From: Acaryochloris marina MBIC11017
GTDB lineage: Bacteria > Cyanobacteriota > Cyanobacteriia > Thermosynechococcales > Thermosynechococcaceae
DNA length: 32,000 nt
NCBI RefSeq assembly: GCF_000018105.1
Contig: NC_009925.1
Location: forward strand, 3,240,001 to 3,272,000
Reading direction: 5' to 3'
Position numbers and translations under genes: made by a program. The notes beneath the pieces were generated by a model. That model saw only the letters and a list, made by a program, of their open reading frames with translations, was not told the origin of the DNA and made no database searches. Positions 22,675 through 32,000 of this stretch are shown here, piece after piece (positions within the stretch are counted from its first letter, which is position 1; each line of letters begins with the position of its first letter).

Positions 22675-23172
22675 AATTTTTACCGATTTATAGAGATTCT
22701 TTTGGAATGACTCTCTTAATGCAGATAAAATATTTTCGATTTATAGATAGTATTATAAGACAGGTGATTATGTGAATGGAGGTTCTTGACCAACTTGCTT
22801 GGTTCAACGAATGTCACCTTGAATTTATAGCGATCTGATGATCGATGCTATGGCTTGATGACGGTATTTTCAGTGGTTTACAATTACATAAACTGAAAAA
22901 TTCATTTTCGAGATGAGCATATGTCGAAAATAGTATGTGTTATTTTATTTGGCAACAATAAGTCTTTGGCATAGCCGGTCCTACTCTATATCTGTTGAAG
23001 CGTGATTAGTGTGTAAGACTTTTTTTCAGTAAGGAATTCTAGAATTTCTTTAGCAAGCACTCTTGAAAATCTTTCTAGTTTTAAGTTTGATATCTCTATC
23101 ATGATTGAATAAAAATAGTGCTAAATAGACTAGTACAATTATCCCTACTTATTTTGTATGGATTAGAGCATT

Positions 23173-28187: not shown

Positions 28188-29476
28188 GGGCTTGGTGTGC
28201 GGAGGATAGTACCCGAGAGGGGATGGGCCGTAGGGGTATAAGACTTAAGGCCATATTCGGCACCGTAATCCGTGCCTAGGCCGAAATACCATTGGTTTTG
28301 GTATTGGGTGAGCGATCGCGCAAAGGTATCGGCTTCAAACCGCAGAATTTCACACCAGTGCTGAGGGTGATTGGCTTGCCTGACACGATTGATAAATCGG
28401 AGTTTGCCCGCGCCCCGCTGTCGCTCACTGGTCAAAACAAATAGGCCTTTCGGGGTTGTAATCACATCCCAAGGGACTTCCTGGGGCTTCAATTGGACGC
28501 GCTGCACCTGGGTGTTGTTGGAGGCTAGGGAGGTAGCGATAAATAAACCGGGGGGTTGAAGATGAGGATCTGCACTGTTGAGCACTCGGATGGCTTGCGA
28601 GGTATGAGAGATATACCGGGAGCCTTTGCTGATATAAGCCAGCTGGGATTGGAAAACCGCCGTTTTCCTGACCTGAGTGGCTTGCGAGTGATTGGGGAAT
28701 AGAGTGGTTCGATCTAAATCTTGCCGTTGAATCGGCTTGAGGGTTGACCCAACCTGCCAAGGACGTCCGCCGACAAAGATATACAGGGACTTTTCAAACC
28801 GGGCCATATGGGCAGGACTGGTGTTCAAGGTTTGGATATCTTGCCAGGTCTGTCCTTTATCCCTGGAGGTGATTAAATAGCCCCGGTTGTCTGACCTGCG
28901 GATCACGGACCATAATTGGTCTGCGAATTTTGCAATGGACCAGACATGCACTCCCCCGGGCAAGGTGCGAATTTTTTGCCACTCCTGCTGTTGAAGACGG
29001 TAGATATTGCCCAAGTCCCAGCTCTCTCGGGCATCAATCCCAGGGGTATATAATTCCGAGTCAATGGTCTGAAAGCTGCGAATCTCTTCTTCTGGGGCAA
29101 CGAACTTGAACTGAAACTGGTTGGCATTGGGGTCGAAAAACCACAAAGGAATTGGCCCTTGATTGGCATTGCTATCGCCATGGCCTAGATAGATTTGATT
29201 TTGAAAGGGCACCATGACCCACACATTGCGAGCATAGGGTTGAGACTTGGCATACTGGCCGGTTGTAAAAGGCGAACCCAAATTCTCTAGGCGTGAGGTG
29301 ACATCAGTGGTGGGAACCTGGGAACAGACCTGGACAGCTGAAGAAGACCCTAAAGGCCATTGCACAAACTGAGAGGCGATGGCACCTGTTCCTGCGATCA
29401 CACCGATCAGAATTAGCGCCCAGCGCCCATAGTGGGGGTGTTTAGGGAGTGAAGGTCTGAGGTTCACAAGTGACAA
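28184..29476 (-). CDS. Membrane-anchored or secreted beta-propeller protein with BNR/Asp-box motif
   Basis: TTG start. N-terminal TM or signal WALILIGVIAGTGAIASQF. Asp-box SRDKGQTW. W/Y-rich repetitive beta-strand pattern. Function unknown. Confidence 0.55.
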   Translation of the reverse strand: MSLVNLRPSLPKHPHYGRWALILIGVIAGTGAIASQFVQWPLGSSSAVQVCSQVPTTDVTSRLENLGSPFTTGQYAKSQPYARNVWVMVPFQNQIYLGHGDSNANQGPIPLWFFDPNANQFQFKFVAPEEEIRSFQTIDSELYTPGIDARESWDLGNIYRLQQQEWQKIRTLPGGVHVWSIAKFADQLWSVIRRSDNRGYLITSRDKGQTWQDIQTLNTSPAHMARFEKSLYIFVGGRPWQVGSTLKPIQRQDLDRTTLFPNHSQATQVRKTAVFQSQLAYISKGSRYISHTSQAIRVLNSADPHLQPPGLFIATSLASNNTQVQRVQLKPQEVPWDVITTPKGLFVLTSERQRGAGKLRFINRVRQANHPQHWCEILRFEADTFARSLTQYQNQWYFGLGTDYGAEYGLKSYTPTAHPLSGTILRTPSP

Positions 29477-29622
29477 GGGCTAGGGATGTAAAACGGCTTG
29501 GGTCTAGAGCACTGGGTCCAGAATATAGCGGATTTATAAGCTGGCTCAACTGGATAACAATGCATAACGTTTGGAATAGATCAGAGATTCGCAATGTTTC
29601 TTTACAAAAATTGCTTGCTTGT

Positions 29623-29640
29623 GTTACATTTATTTACATA
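29623..29640 (+). promoter_or_regulatory. HLR1 box (RpaB binding-site consensus) upstream of hli copy 1
   Basis: GTTACATT-TA-TTTACATA fits (G/T)TTACA(T/A)(T/A)-N2-(G/T)TTACA(T/A)(T/A) exactly. Further TTACA/TTACG half-sites start at 29602, 29645 and 29655, in ~10-11 nt phase. Confidence 0.8.
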
Positions 29641-29662
29641 ATCAATTACGGAGCTTACACAC

Positions 29663-29875
29663 ATGACATCTAGCGGATATACCTCTGACGATCGCGGTCG
29701 CGTTAATCGTTTTGCAGTAGAGCCTAAGACTGCTGCTAAAGCCGAACCTGTATTTGGTTTTAATAAGGATGCTGAAAGATATAGTGGCCGTCTAGCTATG
29801 ATCGGCTTCTTCGGAATTTTATTAATTGAACTGGCCACCAATCTCACCTTTGTCCAGATTGTGACCGGCGCATAG
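29663..29875 (+). CDS. hli: High-light-inducible protein (HLIP, CAB/ELIP/HLIP family), 70 aa
   Basis: Chlorophyll-binding motif ERYSGRLAMIGFFGILLIE. CGGAG SD 9 nt before the ATG. Confidence 0.9.
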   Translation: MTSSGYTSDDRGRVNRFAVEPKTAAKAEPVFGFNKDAERYSGRLAMIGFFGILLIELATNLTFVQIVTGA

Positions 29876-29898
29876 TTGCGAACACCATCATCCATGCC

Positions 29899-29931
29899 AA
29901 GCTGAGGTACTGCCTCAGCTTTTTGCTTTTT
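29899..29931 (+). terminator. Rho-independent terminator after hli copy 1
   Basis: 9-bp stem aagctgagg/cctcagctt with a 5-nt loop, then TTTGCTTTTT. Confidence 0.7.
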
Positions 29932-29957
29932 AAAGCGTCAAGGAACCAGAGATAGCC

Positions 29958-30671
29958 TTAATCACCCCGTTGGATGGCATAGCCTACGCCTCGTACAGAC
30001 AAGATCAAGTCGGGTTCTTCCGTATCTTCTTTCAGCTTGTTCCGGAGGCGCGACATATGAACATCGACGACACGGGTATCAATCTTGCCGTCAGGGCTAT
30101 AGCCCCAAACCTTTTGTAAAAATTCAACTCTAGAGATGGGTTCTCCGGGGCGGCTAACCAGCAGCTCTAGTAGATTAAATTCGAGATGAGTGAGCTGAAT
30201 GCGTTCTTTATCTTTATAGACTTGGCGTTTATTGGTATCAATTTCTAGATGGCCGACCTGAATCACTCCGGCTGATTTATGGTGAGAAGAGTGGGATTTT
30301 GTAATCCGTCGAAGAATACAGCGAATGCGTGACTCTAGTTCTTTGGGAGAAAACGGCTTGACCATATAGTCGTCTGCGCCCATTTCCAGACCCGTAATCC
30401 GATCGGCGACGTCTGAAAGAGCCGTCAACATAATGATGGGGACATCTGATTCTTGCCGTAGGGATTGGCAGACCTGATACCCGTTCAGCTTGGGCATCAT
30501 GACATCCAAAATAATCAAATCTGGTTCTTGATGCTGAAACACTTGCAGGGCTTCCTCGCCATCAGCGGCAGTGATGACAACGAACCCCATCATGGAGAGA
30601 CGAGTTTCTAGGATCCGACGAATGCTAGCTTCATCATCAGCGACTAGAATTTTTTGCTGCTGATCTTTCAA
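29958..30671 (-). CDS. rpaB: OmpR-family response regulator, RpaB (Ycf27)-like
   Basis: ILVADDEASIRRILETRLSMMGF..., PDLIILDVMMPKLNGYQVC, DVPIIMLTALSDVADRITGLEMGADDYMVKPFSPKELESRI, IDTNKRQVYK, VDTRVVDVHMSRLRNKL. These are near-identical in pattern to RpaB as I remember it. Several substitutions leave open that it is a paralogue. Confidence 0.75.
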   Translation of the reverse strand: MKDQQQKILVADDEASIRRILETRLSMMGFVVITAADGEEALQVFQHQEPDLIILDVMMPKLNGYQVCQSLRQESDVPIIMLTALSDVADRITGLEMGADDYMVKPFSPKELESRIRCILRRITKSHSSHHKSAGVIQVGHLEIDTNKRQVYKDKERIQLTHLEFNLLELLVSRPGEPISRVEFLQKVWGYSPDGKIDTRVVDVHMSRLRNKLKEDTEEPDLILSVRGVGYAIQRGD

Positions 30672-30818
30672 ACTACTTTAGTATCCAAAGACAGACAACG
30701 TTGAAGAGACTAATACTCTTTGAACCATGAATAAAAAGCCCAATAAAGTATGAATATGAAGTTTTTTTACATATTCTTAGAGGCTTCTAGAACTTGAGTT
30801 TAGCAGTTGGTAGTCGGT

Positions 30819-30998
30819 TCACTGCATTGTTGTGTCAAAGTTTGCGCTTTCGGTGACAGAGACGCCACTGGAGACAGACAACAATTGCTCTTTGATGGGC
30901 AAGGGACAGATGCAGTTCAACCCAGGATTAGGGTTGTGTGGACAACGATAGACCTGGATGTCAGTAGGCTCAAACCTTACAAGATCTTGAATATCCAT
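30819..30998 (-). CDS. Candidate 59-aa ORF upstream of and co-oriented with rpaB-like gene
   Basis: ATG...TGA reads MDIQDLVRFEPTDIQVYRCPHNPNPGLNCICPLPIKEQLLSVSSGVSVTESANFDTTMQ. It is one codon below the track cutoff. It competes with a TTG-started + strand ORF of odd composition. Confidence 0.3.
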   Translation of the reverse strand: MDIQDLVRFEPTDIQVYRCPHNPNPGLNCICPLPIKEQLLSVSSGVSVTESANFDTTMQ

Positions 30999-31034
30999 AG
31001 TTTGAACAAAAAGCCCTTAATTGTTTGACATGTC

Positions 31035-31073
31035 TTTACATTTCTGTTACATTTATTTACATAAAGTTACGAC
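31035..31073 (+). promoter_or_regulatory. Double HLR1 array (four phased half-sites) upstream of hli copy 2
   Basis: TTTACATT (31035), GTTACATT (31046), TTTACATA (31056), GTTACGAC (31066). The central 18-mer is identical to 29623-29640. Confidence 0.8.
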
Positions 31074-31101
31074 ACACATGCATTAATCGGAGTCTACTCA
31101 C

Positions 31102-31245
31102 ATGAATACATCTAATAATTTCTTTGGATTTAACCCCTTTGCTGAAGCTTGGAGCGGTCGCTTAGCTATGGTGGGTTTCTACGCCGCTATCGTGATTGAA
31201 CTGGTGACAGGCAAAGGCGTGTTGCATTTCTGGGGTTTGATGTAA
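31102..31245 (+). CDS. hli: High-light-inducible protein (HLIP), 47 aa (not in ORF track)
   Basis: [48 protein letters not shown]..(S/N)GRLAM.GF motif. CGGAG 9 nt before the ATG. Confidence 0.88.
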
Positions 31246-31512
31246 GCACTCAGGTTGATGGGCCAATCATATCTAGCTCAACCTGAAAGAGATGAAATAG
31301 CCCTCATGCCTTGCCTGCACTGCATTGATAGAGGCTAAAAATCACTATCTTGCAGTGCTCTGGAGCCTACACCAGCTGACTTAGTGCAGCCCCAAAAAGT
31401 TCAATCCTTCTCTGTTAGTAGCCAGCCAAACTGCAAAAATGCCTTTAATCCTCGCCAGATAAAGGCTTGCCGTTGGTAAAGCCCAGCAGCTTAATTCTCA
31501 TTATCAAACTGA

Positions 31513-31541
31513 CCTCAGCTACATAGCTGGGGTTTTCTTTT
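31513..31541 (+). terminator. Terminator-like hairpin in the hli2-hli3 spacer
   Basis: cctcagct-acat-agctgggg (8 bp with one G-U) followed by TTTTCTTTT. It lies ~270 nt downstream of the hli2 stop. Confidence 0.5.
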
Positions 31542-31647
31542 GGGGGTATGTAACAACATGTCTCCTCAATATGAGAAGTCCAAACCCTTGTGAAATCCTC
31601 ATTTCGAGCATATGAAGGAAGCGATGTTTTCATATTCTTGACAAAAC

Positions 31648-31677
31648 GTTACACATTAAGTTACATTTATTTACATA
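31648..31677 (+). promoter_or_regulatory. HLR1 box plus extra half-site upstream of hli copy 3
   Basis: GTTACACA (31648) and GTTACATT-TA-TTTACATA (31660-31677). This 18-mer is identical to the other two loci. Confidence 0.8.
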
Positions 31678-31709
31678 AGATTCATTTCTCGTTTACGGAG
31701 TCCAACGCT

Positions 31710-31862
31710 ATGAGTACACAAAATCCAATCTGGGGTTTCACCGACTTTGCAGAAACCTTTGGTGGTCGCTTGGCCATGATGGGATTCTTTCTTGCCCTGG
31801 TGACTGAAGTGCTGACCGGTCAAGGAATTGTCGGTCAGATTGCCGCCTTACTAAACTTCTAA
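31710..31862 (+). CDS. hli: High-light-inducible protein (HLIP), 50 aa
   Basis: Internal ATG of the 31590..31862 ORF gives MSTQNPIWGFTDFAETFGGRLAMMGFFLALVTEVLTGQGIVGQIAALLNF. CGGAG 9 nt before the ATG. Confidence 0.88.
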   Translation: MSTQNPIWGFTDFAETFGGRLAMMGFFLALVTEVLTGQGIVGQIAALLNF

Positions 31863-31911
31863 ACCAGTGTTTTGGGTTTAGAACGACTCTAGTTCATCTT
31901 TAATATTTTTT

Positions 31912-31940
31912 CCCCGGCATGTGCCGGGGAGTTTTATTTA
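31912..31940 (+). terminator. Rho-independent terminator after hli copy 3
   Basis: GC stem ccccggc/gccgggg with loop atgt, followed by a T-rich tract (agttttattta). Confidence 0.7.
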
Positions 31941-32000
31941 TCAGTTATCTGTGTTTACCCAAACATTGCCATTATGAAAAATTCATTTGTTAGTAAAGAT

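Follow-up and report, generated by a model that had tools for sequence, protein, structure and literature searches.

RpaB is a response regulator of cyanobacteria and the partner of the kinase Hik33/NblS; the rpaB gene is essential in model strains. Its operator, HLR1, is defined as two direct 8-nt repeats, (G/T)TTACA(T/A)(T/A), with a 2-nt gap between them. In Synechocystis, HLR1 sites centered at –5 belong to promoters that are repressed by RpaB in low light and induced in high light, and sites centered at –51 belong to activated promoters (PMC6525291). Genes for high-light-inducible proteins (HLIPs), pgr5 and ftsH are among the predicted RpaB-repressed targets in that organism (PMC6525291). 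For Acaryochloris marina MBIC11017, Ulrich et al. (mBio 2024) described an HLR1 near the transcription start site (TSS) of a high-light-induced HLIP gene, and the same study counts seven rpaB homologues in this strain (PMC11633204). The ycf27/rpaB paralogues AM1_C0086 and AM1_C0101, carried on Acaryochloris plasmids, are co-transcribed with cpcL (PMC11086944).

Here we analyze a 32,000-nt stretch of the A. marina MBIC11017 chromosome (NC_009925.1, positions 3,240,001 to 3,272,000; hereafter the window), in which a gene for an RpaB-family regulator lies among three HLIP genes in the order hli70–regulator–hli47–hli50. The locus uses the same operator as the RpaB–HLR1 systems of Synechocystis PCC 6803 (hliB) and Synechococcus elongatus PCC 7942 (hliA, rpoD3), with repeats overlapping the predicted core promoter, and it shares with them the target classes (HLIPs, a group-2 sigma factor, pgr5 and ftsH) and the regulator family (PMC6525291). 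The logic of low-light repression and high-light release would also be shared, though only by inference. What sets the Acaryochloris locus apart from these model systems is that an RpaB-family gene lies amid the genes it presumably controls, is only ∼70% identical to canonical RpaB, and has several paralogues alongside.

The example of Ulrich et al., AM1_3193 (ABW28189), is a different hli gene from those of this cluster, and a term search of the text and supplements of that paper returned no mention of the AM1_3229–3234 cluster or of the hli linkage or divergence of AM1_3230, the regulator gene (PMC11633204). There is also a likeness to AM1_C0086 and AM1_C0101, each an RpaB-family paralogue beside light-harvesting or light-stress genes that are possibly under its control. 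The clade of these two is more diverged, however (54–64% identity to canonical RpaB, 60–69% to the window protein), and is plasmid-borne and strain-specific, whereas the window gene is chromosomal and family-wide. Taken as a whole, the locus is probably best explained as an RpaB-type HLR1 regulon island with an hli-linked RpaB paralogue.

HLR1 boxes and predicted promoters of the hli genes

The elements of the three hli cassettes are as follows.

29601–29606 (+): –35-like hexamer of hli70, TTTACA, doubling as an upstream HLR1-type half-site (TTTACAAA); from the promoter scan, and kept in orthologous hli70 promoters with a differing spacer sequence
29623–29640 (+): HLR1 core box 1 (GTTACATT-TA-TTTACATA), covering the predicted –10 element TACATT (29625–29630) and the predicted TSS (∼29637)
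29663–29875 (+): hli70, encoding a 70-aa HLIP extended at its N-terminus; identical to MBIC11017 AM1_3229 (ABW28225); PF00504 score 21.6 bits
31025–31030 (+): –35 hexamer of hli47, TTGACA; from the promoter scan, and conserved in orthologues and paralogues
31035–31073 (+): hli47 array of four phased half-sites, with core box 2 at 31046–31063 and the predicted TSS at ∼31060
31102–31245 (+): hli47, encoding a 47-aa HLIP; identical to MBIC11017 AM1_3232 (ABW28228); weak Pfam match
31638–31677 (+): hli50 promoter, with –35 hexamer TTGACA (31638–31643), half-site GTTACACA (31648–31655), core box 3 (31660–31677) containing the –10 element TACATT, and the predicted TSS at ∼31674
31710–31862 (+): hli50, encoding a 50-aa HLIP; identical to MBIC11017 AM1_3233 (ABW28229); weak Pfam match

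The 18-mer GTTACATTTATTTACATA occurs exactly three times in the window (29623–29640, 31046–31063 and 31660–31677, all on the + strand). A scan of the window at up to three mismatches found no copy besides these, against a chance expectation of 0.03, and none of 100 shuffled sequences gave three or more matches. Each box matches the HLR1 consensus KTTACAWWNNKTTACAWW without mismatch and ends 22 nt (hli70), 38 nt (hli47) or 32 nt (hli50) from the ATG. Exact search thus bears out what a sequence-only reading of this DNA had claimed, namely an identical 18-nt HLR1 box 22–38 nt before the start of each hli gene, and the leader noted in that reading, CGGAG followed by 9 nt and ATG, is present at all three genes. 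When up to two mismatches to the consensus are allowed, eight sites are found in the window versus 0.70 expected. The three cassettes account for seven, whose registers overlap at intervals of 10–12 nt (31025, 31056, 31638, 31650). The extra phased half-sites reported beside the cores are therefore real. At hli47 the array reads TTTACATT tct GTTACATT ta TTTACATA aa GTTACGAC.

Outside the cassettes, a weak HLR1-like site with two mismatches, TTTTCAGTGGTTTACAAT, is seen at 22867–22884 (+), where a gene of 733 aa and one for a metallophosphoesterase diverge from a common intergenic region; its presence may be due to chance.

Conservation is sharply focused on the boxes. When the window cassettes are aligned on them, 100% of core columns are identical, as compared to 25% of upstream and 10% of downstream columns. 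We also compared 14 related promoters from six genomes, comprising orthologues from four other Acaryochloris species-level genomes and an Acaryochloridaceae metagenome-assembled genome (MAG), plus a paralogous block of the same chromosome. In this set, conservation reaches 90% or more at all 16 specified HLR1 positions, and variation is almost confined to the two free spacer bases (TA, TG or AA). The hli70 box of orthologues differs at one spacer base only (TG for TA). Paralogous cassettes carry the same core despite an overall identity of only 76–84%, and a plasmid-borne cassette, only 76% identical overall, still has the exact 18-mer. Because the cassette flanks have diverged, the identity of GTTACATTTATTTACATA is not a relic of duplication. 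A duplicated family of promoter–leader–gene cassettes had been proposed, and the cassettes are not recent copies: the box alone is identical, with flanks at 10–25%. Judged by this pattern, the boxes, each a perfect HLR1, are maintained by purifying selection and carry the signature of a selected protein-binding site.

Could the 18-mers be simply overlapping sigma-70 hexamers, with TTTACA resembling a –35 and TACATT or TACATA a –10 element, or leftovers of duplication? The half-sites do resemble promoter hexamers, the promoter scan draws its –35 and –10 elements in part from the repeats, and promoter-like matches in the region are no more numerous than in shuffled sequences (5 versus 4.8). Yet it is all 16 specified positions of the two repeats that are conserved, rather than two hexamers, with changes at the two free bases, and the diverged flanks exclude relics of duplication. 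Moreover, motif and position fit an experimentally established class of operator (PMC6525291), and the same type of array stands before pgr5, beyond the window. We regard this explanation as highly improbable.

The promoter scan identified TTGACA-17-TACATT for hli47 (10 of 12 matches), TTGACA-18-TACATT for hli50 and TTTACA-18-TACATT for hli70. Both hexamers are kept in orthologues, while the intervening spacers vary. The –10 element is thus predicted to be TACATT, within the 5′ half-site of each box. This differs from the sequence-only reading, which had placed the –10 at CATAA(T/A/G), at the end of the 3′ half-site; that candidate was rejected, as it lacks a conserved –35 at 17-nt spacing and TTGACA/TTTACA-17/18-TACATT is conserved instead. 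From the revised –10 elements we predict TSSs at ∼29637, ∼31060 and ∼31674, which would give leaders of 26, 42 and 36 nt and put the HLR1 centers at about –5.5. By analogy, this position is predicted to match that of the low-light-repressed RpaB targets of Synechocystis.

The regulator among RpaB-family proteins

Only one gene lies between hli70 and hli47, and it is preceded by a conserved element.

29958–30671 (–): gene for an RpaB-family OmpR-type response regulator, 237 aa, with a TTG start; identical to MBIC11017 AM1_3230 (ABW28226, WP_012163638)
30795–30810 (–): invariant 16-mer CCAACTGCTAAACTCA, with a TAAACT –10-like hexamer inside, ∼125 nt upstream of the regulator start; candidate promoter or 5′-untranslated region element

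The exact protein is also encoded on the A. marina MBIC10699 chromosome (AP026075.1) and in many other A. marina assemblies. It contains the Pfam domains Response_reg and Trans_reg_C and scores 392.5 bits against NCBIfam NF045944, the RpaB equivalog model (cutoff 330), in line with its earlier description as an RpaB-like regulator interleaved with hli cassettes. Canonical RpaBs score ∼399 with this model, and other Acaryochloris paralogues 343–369. Residues D12, D13, D56, T83, K105 and C68, kept in 44 of 44 canonical RpaBs, are all present, and the recognition helix, DTRVVDVHMSRLR, differs from the canonical DTRVVDVHISRLR by one conservative change. With its receiver residues intact and its recognition helix essentially unchanged, the regulator should be phosphorylatable and should recognize HLR1-type DNA. 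No solved structure of RpaB was found, the closest being those of MtrA and RpaA.

Elsewhere the protein has diverged. Its identity to the canonical RpaBs compared, which include those of Gloeobacter, Thermosynechococcus and Synechococcus PCC 7336, is 69–71%, versus 86–90% for canonical RpaBs among themselves. Across 44 canonical RpaBs spanning Gloeobacter to Halothece, 187 positions are at least 95% conserved; the regulator is altered at 42 of them, and most of these changes are fixed in its clade. A neighbor-joining tree puts the regulator's clade (A. marina, the Acaryochloridaceae MAG SU_2_1 and three further Acaryochloris genomes) next to the canonical RpaBs; the remaining Acaryochloris copies branch apart, in a clade that has diverged further.

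Genomic context helps to tell orthologues of rpaB from paralogues. Of the 12 canonical rpaB loci whose upstream flank could be used, 7 have a divergently oriented radA there (L101, L104, L106, L107, L108, L110, L115), and radA–rpaB appears to be an ancestral gene pair. A metagenome scan with a canonical RpaB contributed 10 of the cyanobacterial loci used for synteny. In MBIC11017, RadA (AM1_5662) adjoins AM1_5663 (ABW30610), a response regulator annotated as RpaB and assigned to K11329 in KEGG Orthology (KO). This is a candidate for the second rpaB of the genome, for which the sequence-only reading had suggested a search. AM1_3230 has no KO assignment, and radA is absent from both the window and the extended locus (L001). 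Another chromosomal paralogue, P0277, was considered as a candidate for AM1_5663 and rejected, since its neighbors are pilin and FHA genes, not radA.

Given the ∼70% identity, the 42 changed positions, the location away from radA, and the presence of AM1_5663 beside radA, the regulator is likely a paralogue of rpaB, as had been suspected from its substitutions.

An opposing explanation is that the regulator is the organism's single true functional RpaB, evolving fast, perhaps after phycobilisome loss, in which case its adjacency to hli genes would be ordinary regulon membership. Several observations weigh on this side. The regulator is the most RpaB-like Acaryochloris protein seen, has the highest NF045944 score among the Acaryochloris proteins examined, stands near canonical RpaBs in the tree, is named RpaB by NCBI, and could still be the functional RpaB. 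The status of AM1_5663 as the canonical orthologue comes from its KO label and radA neighbor only. No canonical-type Acaryochloris RpaB is among the matches listed in protein searches, and no Acaryochloris protein is among the 120 best relatives of one canonical RpaB, a list that covers a fraction of canonical RpaBs. Finally, seven homologues can be counted in the MBIC11017/NIES-2412 lineage with AM1_5663 left out (AM1_3230, P0277, P0254, P0255, P0288, P0241 and P0283), matching the seven of PMC11633204. Against it, AM1_5663 has K11329 and the RadA neighbor, the commonest beside canonical rpaB, a context unlike that of P0277, and changes at 42 of 187 conserved positions would be unusual for an essential single-copy regulator. 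We consider the single-RpaB explanation unlikely, and retain the paralogue reading.

RpaB-family genes are numerous in Acaryochloris, on plasmids and chromosomes, with at least six paralogues besides the regulator and the radA-linked RpaB. Diverged RpaB-family paralogues (60–67% identity) are also found in the chromosomes of Lyngbya, Limnoraphis, Planktothrix and Capilliphycus, and on many Nostoc plasmids; the Nostoc-plasmid and other plasmid copies are mostly annotated as RpaB by NCBI. RpaB paralogy seems to be common in large-genome cyanobacteria. Among the matches listed in a contig scan with the regulator were two Acaryochloris MAG loci, Oscillatoriales paralogues and unrelated OmpR regulators.

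Canonical rpaB is itself an orphan, so a neighborhood free of kinase genes is uninformative; Pfam annotations within 10 kb on each side of the regulator include no histidine kinase domain. Upstream of the regulator, the 16-mer CCAACTGCTAAACTCA is invariant in six aligned species, family-level relatives included, and is found at 11 of 185 loci, all upstream of regulators of the window type. A further conserved block, GTTGTCTGTYTYTGGATACTRAAG, lies just before the TTG start (window 30672–30830, – strand). Both CCAACTGCTAAACTCA and GTTGTCTGTYTYTGGATACTRAAG are kept across the genus, and CCAACTGCTAAACTCA and the TTGTCTGT core are also present in SU_2_1. RNAalifold paired the two invariant blocks of this 5′ region and buried the start codon, with no covariation and hence no evidence either way; an Rfam scan of 29300–32000 found no credible RNA family.

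Linkage, the larger island and candidate occupants of the boxes

The regulator is head-to-head with hli47, or with hli50 where hli47 is missing, in all A. marina assemblies seen. The same head-to-head pair is found in Acaryochloris bins 137, 148 and 176, in RU_4_1, and in Acaryochloridaceae SU_2_1. Outer flanks vary among these relatives, with CSD, an 82-aa open reading frame (ORF) or hli70 on one side and DUF1499, sigD or an esterase gene on the other. Canonical rpaB has no immediate hli neighbor at the 15 loci inspected, with an HLIP-like ORF ∼3 kb away at 2 of the 15, and none was seen at the plasmid paralogues, the Oscillatoriales paralogues or the intermediate Tara Oceans form examined. 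The regulator–hli linkage is thus inherited across Acaryochloridaceae, which substantiates the earlier suggestion of a co-inherited module.

That module had been described as a compact hli–rpaB–hli–hli cluster. The cluster is real, and it is part of something larger, with sigD, pgr5 and ftsH adjoining it:

31974–32000 (+): start of a SigD-like group-2 sigma factor gene (318 aa; orthologue of AM1_3234; NCBIfam SigD subfamily), which runs past the window end

Beyond the window, sigD is followed by pgr5 (65 aa; NF049860, 127 bits versus a cutoff of 50) and then by ftsH (NCBIfam FtsH). Five phased HLR1-type half-sites, TTGACATT at GTTACAAA tta GTTAAAAT at TTAACATA ac GTTACACA, precede pgr5, the last of them ending 14 nt before the ATG; this array (L001:7370–7418, – strand) lies ∼1.3 kb past the 3′ end of the window. 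The SigD-like gene, between hli50 and pgr5, lacks an HLR1 and may rely on transcription that continues beyond the hairpin of hli50. The hli–regulator cluster probably belongs to a larger high-light regulon island in A. marina.

Much of this island exists in further copies. The block hli47–hli49–hli50–sigD–pgr5–(DUF2949)–ftsH is duplicated elsewhere on the same chromosome at 84–89% DNA identity (L097:3900–8144; AP026075.1, ∼1.475–1.483 Mb), with 302 of 318 sigma factor residues identical. This duplicate corresponds to AM1_4583–4588, and its hli49 and pgr5 are among the genes most induced in high white light. A shorter copy, hli47–hli–sigD–pgr5, is carried on the conjugative plasmid pMB06 of Acaryochloris sp. 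'Moss Beach' (L186).

Together, these features would fit the following scheme. Each hli gene would have its own sigma-70-type promoter, with the –10 element and predicted TSS inside a perfect HLR1, and one to three further half-sites per promoter, in a 10–12 nt phase, would extend the array to the –35 and into the leader. If the arrays work as they do in Synechocystis and Synechococcus, they would be bound in low light by an RpaB-family regulator in its phosphorylated form, which would block RNA polymerase; in high light or redox stress it would dissociate, and the hli genes would be induced. The neighboring regulator would be a diverged paralogue kept beside hli47/hli50 throughout Acaryochloridaceae, with the positional orthologue beside radA elsewhere. 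RpaB-type repression very likely acts at these boxes. Both the low-light repression and the identity of the RpaB-family occupant are inferred; the occupant could be the window regulator, the radA-linked RpaB, or both. We consider it slightly more likely than not that the neighboring regulator binds these boxes in vivo.

Expression data give a qualified picture. Published steady-state RNA-seq of MBIC11017, comparing high white light with low far-red light, gives log2 fold changes of +1.10, +0.64 and +0.75 for the three hli genes (identical to those of the window), –0.55 for the regulator AM1_3230 and +0.46 for the downstream sigma factor. These changes are significant but modest. The hli genes, which the sequence-only reading supposed to be light-responsive, are thus modestly higher in high white light than in low far-red light.

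Further points count against a regulon island run by its resident regulator. The three hli genes are weakly induced relative to AM1_3193 (+4.2) or AM1_4584 (+3.15) in the same comparison. No HLR1 at up to two mismatches lies upstream of the regulator, where there is only a lone TTTACATA half-site (∼30766–30773); autoregulation through an HLR1 of its own was rejected on this basis. In addition, the chromosomal duplicate and the pMB06 copy keep their HLR1 boxes yet lack the regulator gene.

This last point also speaks for an explanation that assigns the boxes to the radA-linked RpaB alone. The neighboring paralogue would then have other targets or be partly redundant, its position being a historical accident in a rarely rearranged region. 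AM1_3193 and other hli genes with an HLR1 likewise have no regulator gene linked to them, and all RpaB-family paralogues share much the same recognition helix, so that adjacency says little about which of them binds. There is also a parallel in the plasmid rpaB homologue proposed to regulate phycocyanin genes. However, the head-to-head regulator–hli pair survives family-level divergence even as the flanking genes change, and no other RpaB-family gene examined has an immediate hli neighbor. We therefore hold control by the radA-linked RpaB alone to be doubtful, though a substantial possibility.

If the neighboring regulator does act at the boxes, it could be an insulated second RpaB. The HLR1-reading helix is kept, and receiver and dimer-face residues are changed (L97M, V103M, A114S, S118C, V119I), so the protein could take its input from a different kinase or signal and, at boxes shared with the radA-linked RpaB, act either with or against it, providing two-input control of a photoprotection island (hli, sigD, pgr5 and ftsH) in Acaryochloridaceae. 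We offer this as a speculation, with the odds clearly against it.

The hli products and the significance of the locus

Public records label all three small proteins as high-light-inducible or CAB/ELIP/HLIP. Their scores for Pfam PF00504 (Chloroa_b-bind), 17.4–21.6, fall just under the cutoff of 22.3. All three contain the helix motif GRLAM(I/V/M)GF and the Glu of the HLIP motif E-x-x-N-G-R-x-A-M-x-G-F. The N-terminus of the hli70 product is weakly Psb34-like in an NCBIfam profile search. We take hli70 to be of the HliA/HliB type and hli47, presumably, of the HliC type. The chlorophyll-ligand Asn of ExxNGRxAMxGF is replaced by Ser in hli70 and hli47 and by Gly in hli50; the 49-aa hli of sister loci (L097:4209–4358) retains it. 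This replacement may bear on pigment binding in a chlorophyll d organism.

Two of the genes were missing or mis-started in the ORF list, as the sequence-only reading had remarked: hli50 lies inside a 90-aa ORF with a GTG start, and hli47 falls under the default cut of 60 aa. Three terminator-like hairpins were predicted.

29899–29921 (+): terminator-like hairpin and T-run where hli70 and the regulator gene converge
31511–31534 (+): terminator-like hairpin between hli47 and hli50
31910–31931 (+): GC-rich terminator-like hairpin and T-run 3′ of hli50

In sister species and in the paralogous block, an extra hli gene of 49–51 aa lies directly 3′ of hli47; it has no separate HLR1 and is probably co-transcribed. 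The corresponding interval of the window (31246–31709) lacks this gene, and tblastn found no remnant there. The hli47 leader (31070–31101) holds ACACACATG, a string that also precedes and includes the start codon of hli70. Here it is followed by CAT TAA, making a two-codon upstream ORF; in the paralogous copy L097, the ATG of ACACACATG shares the frame of the main ORF. It looks as if a short insertion, bringing a new Shine–Dalgarno element and ATG, had displaced an old start in this leader.

Mechanistically, nothing here is new: the model is that of established RpaB/HLR1 repression, and both an HLR1 at an HLIP gene and multiple rpaB homologues have already been published for other loci of Acaryochloris. 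What this analysis adds is the family-wide linkage of a diverged RpaB-family gene to its presumed targets, its probable position as a non-orthologue, and a corrected promoter model.

RpaB/HLR1 is the central light/redox switch of cyanobacteria, and is hard to study in model strains, where rpaB is essential. The locus described here offers very clean natural operators, with identical cores in diverged promoters, and the rare case of an RpaB-family regulator that lies physically close to several classic members of the regulon. Its value is that of a comparative and experimental handle, and it corrects an annotation that calls every Acaryochloris copy RpaB. If this copy of the regulator is dispensable, genetics would become possible on an RpaB-type regulator. 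Acaryochloris, a lineage in which RpaB has multiplied, can also be used to ask how paralogues of the same specificity stay apart.

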